Shown here piece by piece: positions 1,797-10,041 of a stretch of 32,000 bases of DNA. Below the pieces are notes generated by a model. The model searched no databases. It was not told the origin of the DNA and saw only the letters and a list, made by a program, of their open reading frames with translations. The DNA lies in the NCBI RefSeq assembly GCF_000019605.1, contig NC_010482.1:360001-392000 (forward strand). Direction: 5' to 3'. Source of the DNA: Candidatus Korarchaeum cryptofilum OPF8. GTDB lineage: Archaea; Korarchaeota; Korarchaeia; Korarchaeales; Korarchaeaceae. The translations under genes and the position numbers were made by a program. Positions within the stretch are counted from its first letter, which is position 1, and each line of letters starts with the position of its first letter.

Positions 1797-2465
1797 GTGA
1801 GCTCCCTGTCGATGGGGATAGATGAAGCTGGGAGGGGCCCAGTGATAGGGCCAATGGTTGTGGCAGCTGTTATCCTGAAGAGGAGGGAAGCTAAGAGGCT
1901 GAAGGAAATGGGAGTTACTGATTCGAAGCTCTTGAGTGCTGAGAGGAGGGAGGAGCTCTTCCCAATGATAATTGAGAGCGCTGAATCCTACTTAATAAAG
2001 GTAATCGAGCCTAAGAGGATAGATGAAGCCGTCTCTAAGAATATGCTCAATTTACTCGAAGCTGAAGTGATGTCCGAGCTGATAAGGGAGCTCAGGCCCG
2101 CTAGAGTAATAGTTGATTCTCCTATGAGGAACTGCAGGAAGTTCTCAGATGTACTGAGGGAATTCCTGGGGGATTCGAGCGTTAAAATAATAGCTGAGAA
2201 TAAGGCCGACTCCAAATATATTCAAGTGGCTTCAGCCTCCATAATAGCTAAGGTGGAGAGGGATAGGAGGATCAGGGAGTTGAGCGAGCTGACTGGAGTT
2301 GAGATAGGCTCAGGCTACCCAGGAGATCCTAAGACTAGGGAGGCTATTAGGATGATCCTCAAGGGGGCCGAGTTCCCCAGGGATCAGGTGAGATGGAAGT
2401 GGGCGACGATAAATAGGCTCCTGGAGGAGATCAGGGGGAATGATTTGACCGAGTTCCTGGATTGA
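1797..2465 (+). CDS. rnhB: Ribonuclease HII
   Basis: GIDEAGRGPVIGPMVVAAV is the N-terminal catalytic motif, with VDSP and a C-terminal GSGYPGDP motif. The start could be GTG at 1797 or ATG at 1812 (MGIDEAGRG). Confidence 0.9.
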   Translation: MSSLSMGIDEAGRGPVIGPMVVAAVILKRREAKRLKEMGVTDSKLLSAERREELFPMIIESAESYLIKVIEPKRIDEAVSKNMLNLLEAEVMSELIRELRPARVIVDSPMRNCRKFSDVLREFLGDSSVKIIAENKADSKYIQVASASIIAKVERDRRIRELSELTGVEIGSGYPGDPKTREAIRMILKGAEFPRDQVRWKWATINRLLEEIRGNDLTEFLD

Positions 2466-3318
2466 TAACGCTAGCTATTATCTCAGCTATCCTCCTTATC
2501 TCCGCTTGAGCCGATCTATCCAGTCTGAGCTTCAGGAAATGATGCCAGTCCGATTGCCTCCCGCTGACGAAAATAGCTGTCCTCAATGCCGATGGGAGTA
2601 TGTACCTGGCATCTTCCATCCTCACCCCCATGCTCAGGAGCCTTTCATATAGCTTAACGCTCATCTCAGCGTGCTCTCTCATGAGCCTCAAAGCCTCATC
2701 ATTCACCTCTGGGAATATGAAGCCCTCGGGTTTAGTCACCCTCCCGGATCTCTGAGTGAAGCTTAGCCTCCTATGCCTGACGAATTGATGGGAGGCGACT
2801 CTGGACATCTCGATCCAGAAGGCATAGAAACCATGCCTAGGATCCTCATGAGGGGACTTCAAGAAGCTGTAAAGTAGGGGCTCATCGCTCAACTTCTCCA
2901 TCTCAACTGAGAGCCTCGGCTCCGCTTCAGATTCTATACCGAGGATGCGGGATATCATTGGGAGCTCCCTCATGGCTTCCAGGCCTATGACTCTAGCTTC
3001 ACTATCCAGGAGCTCCATAGCTGTCCTTGGATTGAGGGAGATCAAGCTGGGATTTCCTAGAGTTATCTCAACGTATTTATGATTTATGAGGAGCCTCAGC
3101 AGTTCTCGATGGTCGCAATCTATCCAGAGCCTTATCAGGCTGTGCTCGAGGACTGAGTAGTGCCCCATCCTTATGATGTTCGATAGAAGCCTCTCGACCC
3201 TCTCCCTATCATTCAGCTCCTCAGCTATTTCTTCAGGACCCCCAGTGCTCCTAGATACTCTCGTAGCTAGGTAAATTAGACCTTCCCCACCTATTAACTC
3301 CTTCCTCACGACCTCCAT
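2431..3318 (-). CDS. thyX: Flavin-dependent thymidylate synthase ThyX (with internal insertion)
   Basis: Three signatures are present: GHYSVLEH, the ThyX signature RHRRLSFTQRSGR (RHRxxSxxxxSxR), and ARYILP followed by a RLDRSAQAEIR tail. The 3' end overlaps convergent rnhB by 35 nt. Confidence 0.8.
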   Translation of the reverse strand: MEVVRKELIGGEGLIYLATRVSRSTGGPEEIAEELNDRERVERLLSNIIRMGHYSVLEHSLIRLWIDCDHRELLRLLINHKYVEITLGNPSLISLNPRTAMELLDSEARVIGLEAMRELPMISRILGIESEAEPRLSVEMEKLSDEPLLYSFLKSPHEDPRHGFYAFWIEMSRVASHQFVRHRRLSFTQRSGRVTKPEGFIFPEVNDEALRLMREHAEMSVKLYERLLSMGVRMEDARYILPSALRTAIFVSGRQSDWHHFLKLRLDRSAQAEIRRIAEIIASVINPGTRSNHSP

Positions 3319-3640: not shown

Positions 3641-3673
3641 ATGGGCTCGCGAGCTTGGGCTGGGGGTGACCCT

Positions 3674-3895
3674 ATGGAGTTTGAGTGTCCCGTATGCGGA
3701 GCTGTATTCGATATAGAGGATGTAGAAGAGGGCGATGAGGTCAGATGCCCTGAATGCGGCGCTCTACTCGTCGTCATGAAGAAGGGCAAGAAACTCTACT
3801 TGGAGCCCGTTCCTGAGGAGGAAGAGGAGGAATGGGAAGAGGAGGAAGAGGAATGGGAAGAGGAGGAAGAGTGGGAGGAGGAAGAGGAGTTCTGA
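3674..3895 (+). CDS. LysW/ArgW-like zinc-ribbon amino-group carrier protein homologue with extended acidic (EEW)n tail
   Basis: The sequence MEFECPVCGAVFDIEDVEEGDEVRCPECGALLVV...LYLEPVPEEEEEEWEE has the CPxCG...CxxCGA ribbon plus LEPxPEE..W.E tail pattern of LysW. I chose ATG 3674 over 3641 because of the TATA at 3634-3642 and the SD-like GGGGTGA 4 nt upstream. Confidence 0.65.
   Translation: MEFECPVCGAVFDIEDVEEGDEVRCPECGALLVVMKKGKKLYLEPVPEEEEEEWEEEEEEWEEEEEWEEEEEF
3815..3889 (+). repeat. 75-nt polypurine tract (72 purines, 3 T, 0 C) built of imperfect 21/18/18-nt tandem units encoding W-E5-6
   Basis: Read directly from the sequence: gaggaggaagaggaggaa-t-gggaagaggaggaagaggaa-t-gggaagaggaggaagag-t-gggaggaggaagaggag. 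Confidence 0.9.
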
Positions 3896-3896
3896 G

Positions 3897-4643
3897 CTAT
3901 CGAGGCATCCTGTAAAAAGCCATCTTTTTTCCTATCCCGAGGTCATCCAGCTTTTTCTCCCATTCATCAGATATAGAGATCACCGAGAAGACCCCCCATA
4001 GCTTAGCTCCCGCATCGTTCACTATATCAATTATCGCCTCTAGGGATTCCAAGTTCTTCACGATATCCCTAACCAAGATCACTCTATCATCCACCTCTAT
4101 CTGGCTAGGTACGTAGAGCTCGACAACAGCCCCTCTATCGAGGGAGACGTAAGAGCTCCTCAAGTAAGACTCTAAGGAGAGACTTGCATGTTCCATGCAG
4201 CTTAAAGCCTTCGCTTTGAGCCAATCGCTAGCGATTAGGGCTAGGGGGAAGGATCCCTGTGGGGATACTATCACGTTAACCTCCTCATCCCCGACGAAAC
4301 TCGATATGACATATCCCATGAGCTCCAGGAACTTGTAGTTGCTCATAAGCCTCCAGGACTCTATGTAATTGTACCTGTTGACCCTGAGATTTCTCCTGAG
4401 AGCTTCCTCTATAAGGTTCAGGCTCTCTATCCTCTCTATTATCTTCCTAGCTGTCGTCTTCTCCGGTGTGCTCTTGAGACTTATGTATCTCCATATGACT
4501 TGGTACGGTATTCCTAGCTTCGATTCAAGCTCCTTCAATGTGAAAAAACCCTTTAGGGAGCTCAAAAGCCTGACGGAGATGTAAGGAGACTCGAGCCTCC
4601 CGTTCCTCATGACCACTTTACCTTTCCAAGAAGCGTAACTCAC
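3897..4643 (-). CDS. Putative transcriptional regulator: N-terminal winged HTH fused to a degenerate phosphoribosyltransferase (PRT)-like domain
   Basis: The N-terminus FTLKELESKLGIPYQVIWRYIS is HTH-like. The C-terminal domain has PRT topology, but the PRPP loop reads VILVRDIVKNLESL instead of hhhhDDxxxTGGT. The start is GTG at 4643 or, more consistent with the tttaaat TATA at 4646-4655, ATG at 4610. The stop lies 1 nt from the LysW-like stop. Confidence 0.6.
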   Translation of the reverse strand: MSYASWKGKVVMRNGRLESPYISVRLLSSLKGFFTLKELESKLGIPYQVIWRYISLKSTPEKTTARKIIERIESLNLIEEALRRNLRVNRYNYIESWRLMSNYKFLELMGYVISSFVGDEEVNVIVSPQGSFPLALIASDWLKAKALSCMEHASLSLESYLRSSYVSLDRGAVVELYVPSQIEVDDRVILVRDIVKNLESLEAIIDIVNDAGAKLWGVFSVISISDEWEKKLDDLGIGKKMAFYRMPR

Positions 4644-4712
4644 TTAGATTTAAATTCAACTCCGCTGGGCAATATGGTGCCACTCCGTTAGCATTGAATT
4701 CGTCTAGAAAAC

Positions 4713-4720
4713 CTTTATAA
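4713..4720 (+). promoter_or_regulatory. Candidate TATA box (ctttataa) with purine-rich BRE (agaaaa) for the 4751-8673 operon
   Basis: Centred about 35 nt upstream of ATG 4751. A GGATC-N5-GATCC inverted repeat at 4725-4739 sits between the TATA box and the start. Confidence 0.4.
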
Positions 4721-4750
4721 CAATGGATCCACGAGATCCGAAGTTGAGTC

Positions 4751-5710
4751 ATGAAGATGCTTCAGCAGGCAACCTTGCTTGAGGAGTTCAGGTTCCCCGG
4801 GACTCTTTTTAGAGTGAGGAAAATCCCGATAGCTCAGGGATGGAGGAAGATATACATCAAATGGGAGGGAAATAACCCCACGGGGACCCAAAAGGACAGA
4901 GCGGCTTACATGCACGTGAGGAGGGCTATAGAGCAGGGATACGATACGGTGACCGTGGGCACCTGCGGGAACTTCGGGGCTTCCTTAGCCTACTTCGCTA
5001 ACCTCCACGGGATGAGGGCAGTGATATACGTACCGTCACGCTACACCAATGGGAGGGTTAGGGAGATGAGGAAGTACAATGCTGAGATAGTTTACGTAGA
5101 TGGCAGCTACGAGGACGCTGTGGAGAGGAGCGTGCTCGATGCTATGAAATACGGATACTACGATTCCAATCCCGGGAGCGTTAACAGTAGGGTAGCCCTA
5201 GAGTCCTTCAAGGCCATCGCTTATGAGATAGTTGCAGCCCTGGGCTCGGTCCCAGATTTAGTCTCCGTCCCAATGGGAAACGGCACCACTCTAGCTGGTA
5301 TCTACATGGGCTTCCGCGAGATGCTCGATATGGGGATCTCGAGGAAGCTCCCAGTGATGCTAGGGGCAACTACGGGACTGGGGAATCAGATAGCTGAGAC
5401 CCTCAAGAGAGGCTCCGAGGAGCTAGTCCCCCTGAGGGAGGATGAAGTGAGGGAAACTGAGTATAATGAGCCATTGGTCTCGATAAAGGCTTTCGATGGT
5501 GAGTACGCCTTGGAAGCTATAAGGAGGAGCGGCGGCTTAGCTTTCGAATTCTACGATGAGGAACTGCTTCAGCTCGCTGAGGAGCTTAGAATGGAAGGTA
5601 TAGACCCTCTTCCAGCATCCTCCTCCTCTTTAGGGGCTATAGAGAGATATTTAGAGTTCGGGGGATATTTCGAGAATGCAGTGGCAGTCGTCACAGGGAG
5701 AAGGTTCTGA
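4751..5710 (+). CDS. PLP-dependent fold-type II enzyme (threonine synthase / cysteine synthase / TrpB superfamily)
   Basis: NPTGTQKDR contains the PLP-lysine motif (canonical NPTGSFKDR). GTCGNFGASLAYFA and the glycine loop PMGNGTTLAG are also present. Length is 319 aa. Confidence 0.8.
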   Translation: MKMLQQATLLEEFRFPGTLFRVRKIPIAQGWRKIYIKWEGNNPTGTQKDRAAYMHVRRAIEQGYDTVTVGTCGNFGASLAYFANLHGMRAVIYVPSRYTNGRVREMRKYNAEIVYVDGSYEDAVERSVLDAMKYGYYDSNPGSVNSRVALESFKAIAYEIVAALGSVPDLVSVPMGNGTTLAGIYMGFREMLDMGISRKLPVMLGATTGLGNQIAETLKRGSEELVPLREDEVRETEYNEPLVSIKAFDGEYALEAIRRSGGLAFEFYDEELLQLAEELRMEGIDPLPASSSSLGAIERYLEFGGYFENAVAVVTGRRF

Positions 5711-6758
5711 AGTCCCCGAAGCTCTGATACTAGCTGAGGGAAAATACGATACTTCCGATGCTAAGACAGCTCACGGCCTCGTCAGGAAGTCCATGAGGTA
5801 CAGGATAGTCGGCGTCATAGACAGCAGGTTCGCTGGGATGGACGCTGGTGAAGTGCTGGATGGGAAGAGGAGGGGCATAAAGATCTATAGGAGCTTGGAT
5901 GAAGCGCTGAGTGAGAGGCCAAATGTCAGAGTGCTGATAGTCGGTGTAGCCACAGCGGGAGGAATGCTCCCACCTGAGTACAGGGGCTACATAAGGGAAG
6001 CCATAGAGAGGGGGCTCAACATAGTATCGGGGCTCCACGAGTTCCTGAGCGATGATCCAGAGTTCTCAAAGATATCTAAAGAGAGAGGAGTCGAGATAAT
6101 AGATGTCAGGAAGATCTATCAGAAGATGAGGCTTTTCTATACAGGGAAGATAAGGGAAGTGGATTCTTACAGAGTAGCTATCTTAGGGACCGATGCTTGC
6201 ATAGGGAAGAGGACGACGGCCTGGATGATAGTAGATGAGCTCAATAAGAGGGGTATAAAGGCGGTTTTCGTCGGGACCGGTCAGACCGCTTGGATGCAGG
6301 GAGCTAAATATGGGATAGTGCTCGATGCTATGATAAACGATTTCATACCAGGAGGATTGGAGCATGAGGTCTGGAGGGCTTACGTCGAGGAGAGGCCAAA
6401 GGTAATAGTGGTCCCTGGCCAGGGTTCATTGCTGCATCCGGCATTCCCGGGTAGCTTCGAGATAGTGAATTTACTAACGCCTAACGCTATAGTGCTGCAG
6501 CACGCACCTGGGAGGAAGCATTTAGAGGACTTCCCGGAGTTCCCAATGCCCTCGCTGGAGAAGTACATACGCTTAATAGAAGTCATGACGGATAGGAAGC
6601 CTCTAGCTATCACTATAAACACAGAAGGGATGAGTGAGGAAGCTGTGGAGAGTTATGTCAAGGAGGTGGAGGCCAAGTACGGAATAGTGGCATGCGCTCC
6701 CCTGATCCATGGCGTGGGTAGGATAGTCGATGCCATAGCTAAGGAGGTGGAGGGTTGA
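5676..6758 (+). CDS. DUF1611 (COG3367) family protein with BioD-like P-loop
   Basis: The N-terminus LAEGKYDTSDAKTAHGLVR and the central ILGTDACIGKRTTA P-loop-like motif are characteristic of DUF1611. It overlaps the upstream gene by 35 nt and the downstream gene through a TTGA overlap. Confidence 0.65.
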   Translation: MQWQSSQGEGSEVPEALILAEGKYDTSDAKTAHGLVRKSMRYRIVGVIDSRFAGMDAGEVLDGKRRGIKIYRSLDEALSERPNVRVLIVGVATAGGMLPPEYRGYIREAIERGLNIVSGLHEFLSDDPEFSKISKERGVEIIDVRKIYQKMRLFYTGKIREVDSYRVAILGTDACIGKRTTAWMIVDELNKRGIKAVFVGTGQTAWMQGAKYGIVLDAMINDFIPGGLEHEVWRAYVEERPKVIVVPGQGSLLHPAFPGSFEIVNLLTPNAIVLQHAPGRKHLEDFPEFPMPSLEKYIRLIEVMTDRKPLAITINTEGMSEEAVESYVKEVEAKYGIVACAPLIHGVGRIVDAIAKEVEG

Positions 6759-8194
6759 GCATCTGCTTCGATAAGATCAGGATAGGGAACCTGAGGGTGA
6801 AGGATAGGGCTATACTAGCTACTTACGAGCTCGAGGTGGACGGCGTCAGGAAGGAGTACGATCTCATAGAGGTGTACGAGGAGAGTATAAGGGATATAAG
6901 GGGTATCGAGGAGATAGCTGCGTTGATAAGCATAGTTCCGGCGATAAATTACACATTATTTGCGAAAGAAATTGATATAGAATTCCCAATACATGAGTTA
7001 GACCTAAAGTTCTTCATGGATATGAGCGAGATAACTGCTAGGGATATCTTCGTCAATAGGATAGTCAAGAGGACTGGCCTCATCAAGGATGAGTTCATAC
7101 CGGACCCCGAGAGCTTGAGGCCCGAGGATGCTAGCCCGAAAGCTGAAGTTAATGCGAAGATAGGGTCAACGGTCCTCGATTACTCAGGGGATGAGTTGAA
7201 ATGCGGTGTCATGGTCTCCGGGGGGAAGGACAGCCTCCTCTCCTTCATGCTCCTGAAGGAAGCTGGGTGCGAAGTTCATCCCTTCTTTTTCAATGAGAGC
7301 GGGAGGCATTGGCACGTCTCCCTGAAGGCGTACAGGTACTTCAGAGCTGGGGAACCTAGGACAAGCAGGGTCTGGAGCAACGTAGATAGATTATTCAACT
7401 TCATAGAGTCAAACATGAGGATCCTTGTCAAAGATTTCAGGAAAAAGACGAAGGAAATATATCCGATAAGGCTCTTCTGGTTCGAGCATTGGGCTTTCTC
7501 CTTCCTCCCGATCATGATGAGGAGGGGTATAGGGAACATAATCTTCGGGAACGAGTACGATGATCCATCCTCAGTTTCCTCCTACTTCAAGGGGATAAAG
7601 CATTATAATGCGGTTTACGACCAATCCCAGGACTTCGAGGATTACATGACGAACTGGTTCAAGGAGAGGGGGCTTGGAATAAAGCAATGGTCTCCAATAA
7701 GATCTATCTCTGGATTGATAGTACAGAGAATCCTCTACAGGAGGTATAAAGATATCATGAAGCTTCAGATGAGCTGCCATACTCCTAGGTATGCTAGCGG
7801 GGAGCTGAGGCCATGCGGGAGCTGCTATAAATGCATAGGGATAAGGATCTTCCTGCTGGCTAATGGGATAGATCCAAAGATAATAGGTTACGGGGATGAG
7901 CTGAGCGATATAGTGGAGCACGTCGAGGCCGGGAAGTACAGGTTGGATGAGGATGAGCTGGAGCACTCACTGTACCTCATAAGCGAGAGGCTCGGGGTTA
8001 AGCTCCCCAGGGCCCATCCTCATCCCGAAGTAGAGACAGTGAGGTTCAACGATGTAACTGCGAGGATAGATCATATTCCATATCCTGAGTTAAGAAGAAA
8101 AATTTTTAATATAATTGAGGAATATGTGAATGGATATTCCATTCTGAGGGATGGGAAATGGGTAAGAGTAGGGAGAGAGGAATTGGGGCTGTAG
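6755..8194 (+). CDS. PP-loop (adenine nucleotide alpha-hydrolase) ATP pyrophosphatase, 479 aa, with an unassigned N-terminal domain of about 150 aa
   Basis: VMVSGGKDSLLSFMLLKEAGCEV carries the SGGKDS PP-loop. A C-terminal CGSCYKC cysteine motif is present. The TTG start is preceded by a strong SD (aaGGAGGTGgaggg) and overlaps the upstream stop. Confidence 0.7.
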   Translation: MSICFDKIRIGNLRVKDRAILATYELEVDGVRKEYDLIEVYEESIRDIRGIEEIAALISIVPAINYTLFAKEIDIEFPIHELDLKFFMDMSEITARDIFVNRIVKRTGLIKDEFIPDPESLRPEDASPKAEVNAKIGSTVLDYSGDELKCGVMVSGGKDSLLSFMLLKEAGCEVHPFFFNESGRHWHVSLKAYRYFRAGEPRTSRVWSNVDRLFNFIESNMRILVKDFRKKTKEIYPIRLFWFEHWAFSFLPIMMRRGIGNIIFGNEYDDPSSVSSYFKGIKHYNAVYDQSQDFEDYMTNWFKERGLGIKQWSPIRSISGLIVQRILYRRYKDIMKLQMSCHTPRYASGELRPCGSCYKCIGIRIFLLANGIDPKIIGYGDELSDIVEHVEAGKYRLDEDELEHSLYLISERLGVKLPRAHPHPEVETVRFNDVTARIDHIPYPELRRKIFNIIEEYVNGYSILRDGKWVRVGREELGL

Positions 8195-8673
8195 CGATAG
8201 AGTTTAGGGATCTGGGGCCTGAGGAGATAGAGGAATACATAAAATTCGATGCTAAGATAAGCTGGGATTTCCTAACTGATGAGGAGAAGATGGAGCTGGG
8301 ATACGATGATTATCTGAGGAGGCATAGGGAGGTAGTGTACTCGCTCTACAGAGCTAACATGAGGAACAGGATGATAGCGGCTTATGCGGACGGCGAGATT
8401 GTAGGAGTGGTCTGGGTGGGCATGAGGGTAGATACGGTCCACTTCGTGGGCGTGGGCTACATATACGATATCGAGGTGATTAGGGATCTGAGGGGGAAGG
8501 GGATAGGGAGCAAGCTACTCCAGATGGCCGAGGAGACCTGCAGGGAGTGGGGAGTCAAGGAGGTCATGCTGGCTGTCGAGGCGAATAATTTTGAGGCAAT
8601 TAAGTGGTATGAGAGGATGGGATACGCTCCGAAGAGGTATCTGATGAGCAAGAGGTTGCGAGCGTTTGAATGA
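8158..8673 (+). CDS. GNAT-family N-acetyltransferase
   Basis: Motif A reads IYDIEVIRDLRGKGIGSKLLQMAEE (R/QxxGxG), followed by NNFEAIKWYERMGY. It overlaps the upstream gene by 37 nt. Confidence 0.85.
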   Translation: MGKSRERGIGAVAIEFRDLGPEEIEEYIKFDAKISWDFLTDEEKMELGYDDYLRRHREVVYSLYRANMRNRMIAAYADGEIVGVVWVGMRVDTVHFVGVGYIYDIEVIRDLRGKGIGSKLLQMAEETCREWGVKEVMLAVEANNFEAIKWYERMGYAPKRYLMSKRLRAFE

Positions 8674-8706: not shown

Positions 8707-8976
8707 ATGCAGGGATCCGATCTGATCTCAGCTGTGAAGTTCATAATAGAGATCTTATTGAAGTTAGCGAGCTGGTTCGATCAGCTCTTCAAGGCGATAA
8801 TAGTGCCCATAATGAATCAGATAGGCATAAAGGGGGATGCCGCTAATGCTATAACTTTCATAATAGAGCTCATGATATTCGTAGTGCTCATAGAGAAAGC
8901 AGCGGGGCTCGTCAAATGGGTCCTCCTCGCACTGCTCATACTCCTAGTTATAGGGGCCCTCTATCCCTACCTATGA
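8707..8976 (+). CDS. Small membrane protein (89 aa, 2-3 TM)
   Basis: Hydrophobic segments are present (ITFIIELMIFVVLI, VLLALLILLVIGALY). A TATA-like cctttattatg sits about 25 nt upstream. Confidence 0.5.
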   Translation: MQGSDLISAVKFIIEILLKLASWFDQLFKAIIVPIMNQIGIKGDAANAITFIIELMIFVVLIEKAAGLVKWVLLALLILLVIGALYPYL

Positions 8977-9015: not shown

Positions 9016-10041
9016 TTGAGGGCTGTGGTGATACGCAAGCACGGGGGTCCCGAGGTACTGGAGTTCGAGGAGGATTATCCTGATCCTAAGATAGGCCCTA
9101 ATGACGTTCTAGTCGAGGTCAAAGCAGTCGCTATGAATCATTTAGACATCTGGGTGAGGAAAGGCGTGAGAGGGGCGACTCTACCGAGGATACTGGGCTC
9201 GGATATCTCGGGAATTGTTAAGGAAGTTGGGAGTGGCGTGAGCGATGTCAAGGTGGGAGAGGAGGTCATAGTCTCCCCGGGTTACGGCTGCGGGAAGTGC
9301 GAGTACTGCCTGAGCGGTAGGGAGAGTATGTGCAAGCAGTATAAGATGCCCGGCTATCACGTCGATGGCGGTTACGCTGAGCTGACATCGCATCCTGAGA
9401 GGGCGATACTCAGGAAGCCAGCAAATCTGAATTTCGAAGAGGCAGCATCGGTCCCTTTAGTCTTCCTTACATCTTGGCACATGCTCAGGACTCTCGCTGA
9501 TGTGAGGGAAGATGAGTGGGTCCTCATATGGGGCGCTGGGAGCGGAGTGGGCATATCATCGATACAGATAGCGAAGCTCCTCGGGGCCAAAGTTATAGCA
9601 ACTGTCGGGGATGATTGGAAGGTGGAGAGGGCCTATAAGATAGGGGCGGATCACGTGATAAACAGGAAGAAGGAGGATGTCATCGCTAGAGTGAAGGAAC
9701 TCACTGGGGAGGGGGTGGATGTGGTCGTAGACTCGGTGGGCAGCGAGACTTGGATGAGCAGTCTCAAGTGCTTGAGGGTAGGGGGCAGGATGGTCAGCGT
9801 GGGAGCCACTTCAGGGGAGCAAGCGAGTATAGATGTCAGATACATTTTCTCAAGGCAGCTCAGAATATTAGGCTCTTACATGGGGAGCAGGGCTGAGCTG
9901 ATCGAAGTTCTGAAGTTCTTCGAGAGGGGGAAGCTCAGGCCAGTCATAGATTCTGTATTCAAGCTTGAGGAAGCTAGGAAGGCTCATGAGAGGATGGAAG
10001 GGAGCGAGATGTTTGGAAAGATAGTTATCCTGCCGAGGTGA
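9016..10041 (+). CDS. Zinc-type alcohol dehydrogenase / quinone oxidoreductase (MDR superfamily)
   Basis: GCGKCEYCLSGRESMC is the structural-zinc cysteine cluster and GAGSGVGISSIQIAKLLGAKV is the Rossmann motif. The TTG start gives MRAVVIRKHGGPEVLE. Confidence 0.85.
   Translation: MRAVVIRKHGGPEVLEFEEDYPDPKIGPNDVLVEVKAVAMNHLDIWVRKGVRGATLPRILGSDISGIVKEVGSGVSDVKVGEEVIVSPGYGCGKCEYCLSGRESMCKQYKMPGYHVDGGYAELTSHPERAILRKPANLNFEEAASVPLVFLTSWHMLRTLADVREDEWVLIWGAGSGVGISSIQIAKLLGAKVIATVGDDWKVERAYKIGADHVINRKKEDVIARVKELTGEGVDVVVDSVGSETWMSSLKCLRVGGRMVSVGATSGEQASIDVRYIFSRQLRILGSYMGSRAELIEVLKFFERGKLRPVIDSVFKLEEARKAHERMEGSEMFGKIVILPR

Follow-up and report, generated by a model that had tools for sequence, protein, structure and literature searches.

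In the current work, a 32,000-nucleotide stretch of the chromosome of Candidatus Korarchaeum cryptofilum OPF8 (NC_010482.1, positions 360,001 to 392,000 of the forward strand; hereafter the window, in which all coordinates are given) was analyzed with a focus on four co-directional genes located between positions 4,751 and 8,673. These genes represent a genuine, widely conserved and undescribed archaeal operon, in which a new family of the MurL/QueC superfamily is coupled to a protein of the DUF1611 family. On the + strand, the operon encodes a fold-type-II pyridoxal 5'-phosphate (PLP) enzyme resembling threonine synthase (319 aa; 4751..5710), a DUF1611_N plus DUF1611 protein of the DgcN family (360 aa; 5676..6758), a predicted adenylating enzyme of the PP-loop type with a TTG start (479 aa; 6755..8194) and a GNAT acyltransferase (171 aa; 8158..8673). 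All four genes were taken from a list of open reading frames (ORFs) and assigned by means of profile hidden Markov models (HMMs; the PLP and DUF1611 proteins), matches in the PDB (the DUF1611 protein), profile searches and an AlphaFold2 (AF2) model (the PP-loop protein), or Pfam (the GNAT). A full-text literature search covering DUF1611, COG3367, PF07755 and MurL-like proteins retrieved no description of the four-gene cluster, and neither a pathway nor a paper was found to account for the set, in line with an earlier note on this DNA in which the cluster was said to match no known pathway.

The genes are densely packed. The PLP and DUF1611 genes overlap by 35 nt, the ATG of the second being located at 5676 and the TGA of the first at 5708-5710, while the DUF1611 and PP-loop genes meet in the tetranucleotide TTGA (6755-6758), with a Shine-Dalgarno sequence GGAGGTG (6743-6749) positioned 5 nt ahead of the TTG. 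The PP-loop and GNAT genes overlap by 37 nt (GNAT ATG at 8158, PP-loop TAG at 8192-8194), and the junction sequences contain no downstream alternative start codon able to abolish the overlaps. These junctions are as the earlier note had described them, and the four motifs that it had quoted were each located in the translated proteins: NPTGTQKDR in the PLP enzyme (residues 42-50, nt 4874-4900, with K48 as the PLP lysine), GTDACIGKRTT as the P-loop of the DUF1611 protein (residues 171-181, nt 6186-6218), and SGGKDS (residues 155-160, nt 7217-7234) and CGSCYKC (residues 354-360, within a Cys4 motif SCH...CGSCYKC at nt 7772-7834) in the PP-loop protein. A BRE/TATA-like element, AGAAAACCTTTATAA (4706..4720, + strand), was read from the sequence about 30 nt upstream of the first ATG of the operon and may serve as an archaeal promoter. 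Considering the three overlaps together with this upstream element, it is reasonable to infer a single archaeal promoter and four translationally coupled genes. An Rfam scan of the whole window and a tRNA search gave no match, and therefore no riboswitch or leader is indicated; repeats in the promoter region were restricted to short matches at chance level.

Next, the conservation of the gene order was determined by a scan involving one genome per species, which yielded 206 loci with a relative of the PP-loop protein, the best 80 of which were kept. Neighbours were identified by tblastn with the window proteins and by all-against-all clustering of every neighbouring ORF, and the denominators 73 and 60 used below represent the loci with enough sequence to judge. 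The retained loci include representatives of the Thermofilaceae, Desulfurococcales-type genomes, Korarchaeia (Methanodesulfokora among them), Conexivisphaera and other Nitrososphaeria, Bathyarchaeia, Thermococci and many Thermoplasmatota; the locus closest to that of the window belongs to an uncultured metagenome-assembled genome (MAG; 92% identity), and a Korarchaeum MAG is found at 79%. The DUF1611 gene is located immediately upstream of the PP-loop gene and on the same strand in 66/73 loci (median gap of 29 nt), the PLP gene is positioned upstream of the DUF1611 gene in 52/60 loci (median gap of -8.5 nt, i.e. an overlap), and the ORF that adjoins the PP-loop gene at its 3' end encodes a GNAT in 48/71 loci. 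The orientation of this GNAT gene varies, being that of the PP-loop gene in loci from Thermoproteota, Korarchaeia, Nitrososphaeria and Thermococci, whereas the two genes converge in Thermoplasmatota and Bathyarchaeia. Only four neighbour families are broadly conserved, being those of the PP-loop protein (76 loci), DUF1611 (64), the GNAT (53) and the PLP enzyme (51). As exceptions, some Thermofilaceae carry the PP-loop and GNAT genes alone, acidophilic Thermoplasmata possess the DUF1611 and PP-loop genes without an adjacent PLP gene, and in Thermofilum pendens the ORF following the PP-loop gene does not encode a GNAT.

Since dozens of distantly related genomes show both the same order and the same strand, the four-gene arrangement, which extends over at least five archaeal classes, is far beyond what chance would produce. 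The cluster is therefore one conserved, packed unit, as the earlier note had supposed, and an absence of co-localization in related genomes, which that note had named as fatal to its proposal, is clearly contradicted by the counts for DUF1611 (66/73) and the PLP gene (52/60). A separate observation concerns a locus labelled as a Myxococcales bacterium MAG, in which an archaeal-type PP-loop gene (L078:8001-9404; 38% identity) is accompanied by a GNAT gene without PLP or DUF1611 genes; this locus could represent horizontal transfer or a mis-binned archaeal contig.

The PP-loop protein has no family in Pfam: with permissive E-values included, the protein and 24 relatives obtained noise-level matches to QueC and tRNA_Me_trans only, the QueC model (PF06508) scoring 13.3 bits for the window protein against a cut-off of 22, and a PDB sequence search returned no relative. 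A PF26299 tag listed for two of its homologues could not be reproduced. More than 2,000 full-length homologues exist, which are almost always annotated as 'hypothetical'. The family is conserved along its full length, the first 145 residues included, and its invariant elements comprise SGGK[DE]S, NESGxHW, WxNxDR, YPxRL, GxExDD, DQ, QWS and SCH...PCGxCxKC. The four cysteines C341, C354, C357 and C360 are also invariant, following the spacing C(x12)CxxCxxC as opposed to C(x8)CxxCxxC in canonical QueC.

An AF2 model of the whole protein was obtained with a predicted local distance difference test score (pLDDT) of 92.8 and a predicted TM-score (pTM) of 0.91, and a Foldseek comparison of this model with the PDB placed QatC, Cap9 and QueC nearest, the top match being QatC (E 1.5e-5 over 460 aligned columns, with TM-scores of just 0.39/0.43). 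All three of these proteins adenylate a carboxylate (PMC13329287), and with them the window protein has in common an SGGxDS PP-loop and a Cys4 zinc-type motif. It differs from the QueC family in carrying an additional N-terminal domain of 145 aa (nt 6755-7204) and a C-terminal extension of ~120 aa, in lacking the substrate-signature motifs, and in having neither que nor defence genes as neighbours: the QueC signature YxQxHxxE / VPxRN / YPDC is absent, the equivalent segments reading NESGxHW, YPIRL and E[YF]DD. A recent survey of the QueC family was restricted to PF06508 members, and the window protein falls outside PF06508 and hence outside the coverage of that survey.

The only curated family matched by the PP-loop protein is that of MurL (NF041275), at 20.3 bits relative to a cut-off of 700 (E 1.6e-4), and the same model was weakly matched by 9 of the 24 family members. 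A profile search over 1.8 billion representative sequences then yielded 488 relatives, among which intermediates of 440-475 aa were retrieved at 1e-18 to 1e-30; when compared with the MurL model in turn, these intermediates obtain E-values of 7e-10 to 1e-5 over a region that spans both the PP-loop and the Cys motif. Because of the weak MurL matches and of the intermediates that bridge the two groups, the PP-loop family can be placed as a new deep branch of the MurL/QueC-like superfamily, its N-terminal region included, and judging from these profile scores the window protein is a superfamily relative of MurL rather than a member of that family. The two proteins are of comparable length and share an architecture in which an N-terminal region of about 110-145 aa is followed by the PP-loop and then by a Cys-rich motif. 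MurL, described as 'lacking known conserved domains', is a unidirectional epimerase that depends on the conversion of ATP to AMP and acts on a C-terminal N-acylated Glu; the mechanism suggested for it is adenylation of this terminal N-acylated glutamate at the alpha-carboxylate, with release of the D-epimer (PMC5808125, PMC8788868). A further likeness would be an ATP-dependent, AMP-forming reaction at the carboxylate of an N-acylated amino acid, carried out after another enzyme has formed the N-acyl bond. The differences are the bit score cited above and the setting, the window family being found in archaea without peptidoglycan and with DUF1611, a ThrC-like PLP enzyme and a GNAT as partners; a Mur ligase was detected neither in the window nor in any of the 80 loci.

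The N-terminal domain was also modelled in isolation (residues 1-150; pLDDT 92.5). Foldseek returned only weak matches of RNase H-like topology (TM <=0.35, rmsd about 12 Å), and RNase H-like homology was discarded on account of these values. The earlier note had found the first ~150 aa unrecognizable; this holds as far as structure is concerned, where nothing convincing emerged, but not for the profile searches, which place the N-terminal region within the MurL superfamily. Taken together, the HMM scores, permissive Pfam searches and PADLOC indicate that the window protein is not an orthologue of QueC, TilS, QatC or MurL, in agreement with the earlier note, to whose proposal a true QueC or TilS orthologue would have been fatal.

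More distant members of the superfamily were encountered in other settings. A PP-loop relative of 448 aa, P0230 (L087:7001-8347; also L088, L089), is located between QueC and a TGT/DpdA-like gene, in a cluster that further encodes QueD, QueE, FolE, a nucleoside deoxyribosyltransferase and a family-B DNA polymerase and that looks viral; P0230 is possibly a step in 7-deazaguanine DNA modification. The gene for P0264 directly follows that of a canonical QueC (L093:796-3281, L094-L095), and the gene for P0254 directly follows that of a small ThiI/QueC-like PP-loop protein (L096:4368-6332, L097), an arrangement that suggests paired PP-loop enzymes. At L085:4785-8368, a KamA-like radical-SAM aminomutase, an ATP-grasp protein of the D-Ala-D-Ala-ligase type and a MurL-like PP-loop protein, P0227, are encoded in a row amid purine-biosynthesis genes, the pair of ligase and MurL-like protein being reminiscent of MurD2/MurL. 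Considering that its members adjoin QueC, viral 7-deazaguanine genes, or a KamA-like radical-SAM gene and an ATP-grasp gene, the superfamily is chemically diverse.

The DUF1611 protein matches both PF17396 (DUF1611_N; 111 bits) and PF07755 (DUF1611; 221 bits). Its best NCBIfam match is the DgcN model NF041892, at 183.5 bits and thus below the cut-off of 480, and in the PDB it matches the DgcN structure 7xrj at E 2.9e-43 in addition to the structural-genomics entries 2g0t and 2obn. On the basis of these scores, the window protein is a member of the DgcN family and not an orthologue of DgcN. In a 2023 study DgcN reportedly acetylates D-Glu, and the NCBIfam name of the DgcN model is N-acetyltransferase. 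According to two papers, DgcN and DgcA act on an N-acylated glutamate that undergoes a change of configuration (PMC12363236, PMC10845958). The P-loop of this protein had been compared to that of BioD, a lead which is now superseded since DUF1611 has a characterized member. The DgcN-DgcA pathway serves D-glutamate catabolism and pairs the DUF1611 N-acetyltransferase with an N-acetyl-D-Glu racemase of the enolase superfamily. The archaeal cluster shares with it the DUF1611_N plus DUF1611 architecture and, as detailed below, some accessory genes. It differs in that the obligatory partner of its DUF1611 protein is a PP-loop ATPase, absent from the bacterial pathway, and in that it further includes genes for a PLP enzyme and a GNAT; moreover, the window contains no DgcA-type racemase next to DUF1611 and no gene of the enolase superfamily (MR_MLE).

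The DUF1611 and PP-loop proteins are tied to each other by gene fusion as well as by position. The representative search retrieved one protein, P0135, in which DUF1611_N-DUF1611 is fused to the PP-loop protein, and four proteins (P0136, P0138, P0168 and P0170) in which the PP-loop protein is fused to a metal amidohydrolase of the creatininase family (PF02633); in P0137 it is fused to a methyltransferase. Two of the fusion contexts proved informative, each fully co-directional: one consists of a PALP gene, the DUF1611~PP-loop fusion, a creatininase gene and an MR_MLE gene, and the other of a PLP gene, a DUF1611 gene, the PP-loop~creatininase fusion and an MR_MLE gene. The gene contexts of P0168 and P0170 are cut at contig ends or uninformative, and the contigs of P0202 and P0137 are too short.

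The fourth gene encodes a protein with an Acetyltransf_1 domain (78.8 bits in Pfam, gathering threshold 20.7) that reaches no specific NCBIfam equivalog and is a generic GNAT; its assignment in the earlier note is borne out by this domain and by its position beside the PP-loop gene in the loci counted above. In 14 of the 80 loci, from Thermoplasmatota and Bathyarchaeia, the GNAT gene is followed by genes for an M14-like carboxypeptidase and an MR_MLE enzyme, so that together with the two fused variants an MR_MLE enzyme and an amidohydrolase recur next to the cluster. This MR_MLE enzyme scores highest with the L-Ala-D/L-Glu epimerase model (236 bits), followed by that of DgcA (150 bits, cut-off 400). 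In four Thermofilaceae without adjacent PLP and DUF1611 genes (L004, L005, L006, L014), a gene of the Asparaginase_2 family (isoaspartyl peptidase / L-asparaginase; 298 bits) is positioned just upstream of the PP-loop gene on the opposite strand, divergent from the PP-loop-GNAT pair. Flanking transporters are of the major facilitator superfamily in Thermococcus and in L081, are of the EamA family in acidophilic Thermoplasmata, and consist of energy-coupling factor components in T. pendens.

Such accessory genes have counterparts in known routes. In Escherichia coli, mpaA-ycjG represents a murein-peptide module, and L-Ala-D/L-Glu epimerase and the M14 murein-peptide amidase act on N-acylated glutamate with a change of configuration; in Geobacillus, a GNAT, an N-succinyl-amino-acid racemase and a deacylase make up an irreversible D-to-L route. 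The archaeal loci resemble these acylate-racemise-deacylate routes in that a GNAT, an MR_MLE enzyme and a metallo-amidohydrolase (M14 or creatininase) are found beside the core in many loci, and they differ in that the core itself (PLP enzyme, DUF1611 and PP-loop protein) has no counterpart there, its use of ATP being new. Rather than to the amidated product considered in the earlier note, the accessory genes point to a pathway in which N-acyl amino acids or dipeptides are inverted between their D and L forms. Three recurring families (DgcN/DgcA, L-Ala-D/L-Glu epimerase with M14, and MurL) have characterized members acting on N-acylated glutamate that undergoes a change of configuration.

The PLP enzyme carries a PALP domain (170.8 bits in Pfam) and is, in the PDB, nearest in sequence to threonine synthases (about 1e-26). 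It passes the NCBIfam 'threonine synthase' equivalog NF004996 (461 bits, cut-off 266), and therefore an annotation pipeline would map it to a known pathway, an outcome that the earlier note had considered damaging to its proposal; JGI indeed lists homologues as threonine synthase, but the names given by NCBI go no further than 'pyridoxal-phosphate dependent enzyme' or 'threonine synthase-related'. With this enzyme group the window protein further shares the PTGxxKDR lysine motif. It is nevertheless a short form, remains below the cut-off of TIGR00260 thrC (105 versus 167 bits), and is far below those of five other ThrC equivalogs. The contacts of ThrC with the phosphate of O-phosphohomoserine are presumably T88, N154, S155, R160 and N188 in the numbering of Thermus thermophilus. 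In an alignment to 1uim (T. thermophilus ThrC) and in column counts over 53 cluster-linked homologues, T88 is replaced by Y/F, N154 by G, and R160 is variable or absent, with the PLP lysine and the equivalents of S155 and N188 being retained. The family has invariant motifs of its own, namely TCGN[YF]G (with C72), YDANPG, NGTTLxG, NEPL, DG, LPAS and TGR. The name 'threonine synthase' is unsafe because TIGR00260 is failed, phosphate-binding positions are lost, the gene travels with those of DUF1611 and the PP-loop protein, and NCBI keeps to the more general names; the enzyme is ThrC-like but probably not a threonine synthase.

From the above, the operon may, as a tentative proposal which we hold at somewhat less than even chance, specify a pathway in which an acidic amino acid or a dipeptide is acylated, adenylated and then epimerized or transferred. 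The substrate, the prerequisite of N-acylation, the epimerization outcome with its D/L direction and the parts played by the GNAT and the PLP enzyme are what we infer in the following scheme, at the core of which the DUF1611 enzyme would be physically coupled with the PP-loop enzyme of the new MurL/QueC-superfamily family. First, the DUF1611 protein and/or the GNAT would N-acylate an amino acid, the acidic ones (for example Glu or Asp) being the most plausible, or else a dipeptide with such a residue at its end. Next, the PP-loop enzyme would adenylate the alpha-carboxylate of the N-acyl amino acid, converting ATP to AMP and PPi. The resulting N-acyl-aminoacyl adenylate could then lose its stereochemistry, for example via an oxazolone as proposed for MurL, after which either the opposite epimer would be freed or the activated group handed to an acceptor. 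In variant clusters, the acyl group would be removed by the creatininase-type or M14 amidohydrolase. Finally, the ThrC-like PLP enzyme would stand at one end of the pathway and make or use the free amino acid; since this enzyme requires a free amine, it would act before acylation or after deacylation. N-acylation would be a logical prerequisite for a MurL-type reaction because adenylation of the carboxylate of an N-acyl amino acid labilizes the alpha-proton through oxazolone formation, and this prerequisite would account both for the fusion of an acyltransferase-type protein with the PP-loop enzyme and for the amidohydrolases that follow.

In a more specific form, heterotrophic archaea of at least five classes would use ATP to change the stereochemistry of N-acylated amino acids or dipeptides and so make or salvage D-amino acids, the PP-loop enzyme being complexed with, and at times fused to, DUF1611 and fed by the ThrC-like enzyme; in this form the proposal is on balance doubtful. 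Several points weigh against the acylation-adenylation-epimerization scheme as a whole. The similarity to MurL is remote, with roughly 20 bits where the cut-off stands at 700, and members of the superfamily stand beside QueC or in a viral 7-deazaguanine cluster, so that superfamily membership does not imply epimerase chemistry. Where both are present, an enolase-type epimerase plus a second, ATP-driven epimerase looks redundant. In the window, the operon encodes two putative acyltransferases but lacks a deacylase, stereo-inversion leaves the ThrC-like enzyme without an explained role, and the combined cost of acyl-CoA and of ATP-to-AMP hydrolysis is implausible for pure catabolism in fermenters. 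The more general idea of the earlier note, that the operon concerns an N-acylated amino-acid-type metabolite, is compatible with all results, and the pathway would be of a small-molecule amino-acid type and widespread in heterotrophic archaea. The chemistry would be of a known kind, acyl-dependent stereo-inversion of amino acids or adenylation, the components and the host range being new.

If the acylation-adenylation-epimerization proposal is true, a function would be provided for an unnamed PP-loop family of ~480 aa with thousands of members, for archaeal DUF1611 and for the 'PRK06381 threonine synthase' group, which is probably misnamed in many genomes. MurL-type ATP-dependent epimerization, to date reported solely from an alternative peptidoglycan pathway in a few bacteria, would then reach archaea that are free of peptidoglycan. 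Archaeal D-amino-acid metabolism, including the handling of racemized or bacterial D-amino acids by heterotrophs of sediments and hot springs, is largely uncharted. Even if the reaction were an amide ligation, an operon kept from Thermococci to Bathyarchaeia represents a well-defined and experimentally tractable target.

Such an amide ligation, the reading favoured in the earlier note, is the alternative that survives best and is, like the specific stereo-inversion scheme, possible although not probable. It assumes the biosynthesis of an N-acylated amino-acid amide or a small peptide-like metabolite, in which beta/gamma-replacement by the PLP enzyme would yield an unusual amino acid, the PP-loop enzyme would adenylate a carboxylate, and attack by ammonia or an amine would generate the amide, as in QueC, NadE, Cap9 and QatC; DUF1611 may be the acyl-transfer partner, and the GNAT would acetylate the product, which could serve, for instance, as a signal or compatible solute, or protect the cell itself. 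The QueC-type fold and zinc motif are as this reading would have them, the solved structural neighbours all making amides from adenylated carboxylates (PMC13329287), and a DUF1611~PP-loop fusion would suit a ligase that combines adenylation with transfer. The conservation of the GNAT beside the PP-loop gene and the presence of adjoining transporter genes fit as well, and the energy cost would match biosynthesis better than catabolism. A glutamine amidotransferase or an obvious amine-donor gene is absent, however, the recurring accessory epimerase, carboxypeptidase and amidohydrolases degrade or invert rather than build, and the sole characterized relative by HMM is the epimerase MurL.

According to a further and improbable alternative, the substrate of the PP-loop enzyme would be a nucleobase-type carboxylate, for example 7-carboxy-7-deazaguanine or a purine or pterin relative, and coupling of the activated group to an amino acid from the PLP enzyme would produce a nucleobase-amino-acid conjugate or serve as an archaeosine-type step. 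The distant members P0230, P0264 and P0254 lie beside QueC, QueC-like, QueD/QueE/FolE or TGT genes, the divergent neighbour of the operon in the window encodes a PurR-like protein with a phosphoribosyltransferase (PRT) domain, and the creatininase family includes a hydrolase of a GTP-derived formamide. QatC and Cap9, which are nearest to the enzyme by structure, both join carboxy-deazaguanine to amines (PMC13329287). Yet the canonical QueC motifs YxQxHxxE and YPDC are missing from the PP-loop family, queD, queE, folE and tgt occur in none of the 80 loci, and the conserved partners are all amino-acid or peptide enzymes, the PRT-like protein being present in 7 loci only.

It is very unlikely that the first gene encodes a true threonine synthase which, with unrelated housekeeping genes, has been packed into this order by chance: the NF004996 score, the JGI label and the proximity of ThrC structures in the PDB would favour such a view, whereas synteny across phyla, the gene fusions, the TIGR00260 score and the replacement of T88, N154 and R160 (positions taken as above) contradict it, and neither hom nor thrB was found near the cluster in any of the 80 loci. 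The top Foldseek match, to QatC, would direct towards anti-phage defence, with the QueC-like enzyme modifying the N-terminus of a protein within a module akin to QatABCD or type IV CBASS. Such a module was rejected as the least credible of the readings because PADLOC matched none of five proteins, and also in view of the loci lacking QatA, QatB, QatD, CD-NTase and TGT partners, of the stable, vertically conserved position among housekeeping genes and of the low TM-scores.

Outside the conserved core, the gene divergent from the operon (3897..4643, - strand) encodes a PRT-domain protein of 248 aa, a possible PurR-like regulator assigned from sub-threshold NCBIfam matches (PRK08558 at 109 bits against a cut-off of 184; PurR at 22.7 bits). 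Pfam gave no match for this protein and detected no helix-turn-helix (HTH) domain, and the gene lies beside the cluster in the window and in 6/80 loci. Its customary acidic/Thr-Gly motif of the phosphoribosyl pyrophosphate (PRPP) loop is replaced by VILVRDIVKNLESL, and this replacement suggests that the protein is a ligand-sensing regulator and not an enzyme. The operon had been credited with its own divergent HTH/PRT-like regulator, a description of which the PRT-like part is upheld by the sub-threshold matches and the HTH part and the link to the system at large are not.

The + strand gene at 3641-3895 encodes a LysW-like protein of 84 aa with a zinc ribbon (40.6 bits in Pfam, threshold 27) that stays below the equivalog cut-offs (TIGR01206, 35.1 versus 53.2; NF041070, 35.1 versus 75). 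Its tail of 30 residues consists of Glu runs broken by Trp (EEEEEEWEEEEEEWEEEEEWEEEEEF) and terminates in EEEEF, thus ending in Phe and not, as in LysW carriers, in the attachment Glu. This gene accompanies the cluster in two other loci only, being next to the PRT-like gene in L001 and L003, and for this reason the protein was dropped as a substrate or carrier; the atypical LysW-like neighbour pointed out in the earlier note is thus real with respect to its zinc ribbon but falls outside the conserved system. Both the PRT-like and the LysW-like genes are lineage-specific companions in close relatives of the window.

At the 3' side of the operon, a sequence similar to AGAAAACCTTTATAA, ACCTTTATTA, is present at 8655-8664, 3' of the GNAT gene. 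An element of the form ACCTTTAT(A/T)A occurs twice, at 4711-4723 upstream of the operon and at 8654-8664 just past the GNAT stop, where it precedes a small membrane-protein gene (8707-8976); the two copies are likely archaeal TATA boxes at the operon edges. In the window (9016-10041, + strand), as in L001 and L029, a zinc-type medium-chain dehydrogenase is encoded just 3' of the operon, and a distant relative of it (27-31% identity) is encoded divergently upstream of DUF1611 in acidophilic Thermoplasmata (L031:376-1221, L035:5511-6359); this gene could be a coincidence or a loose accessory. Finally, a ThyX homologue of 295 aa (2431-3318, - strand) carries about 140 additional N-terminal residues, its Thy1 domain being matched in two stretches from residue 144 on only.

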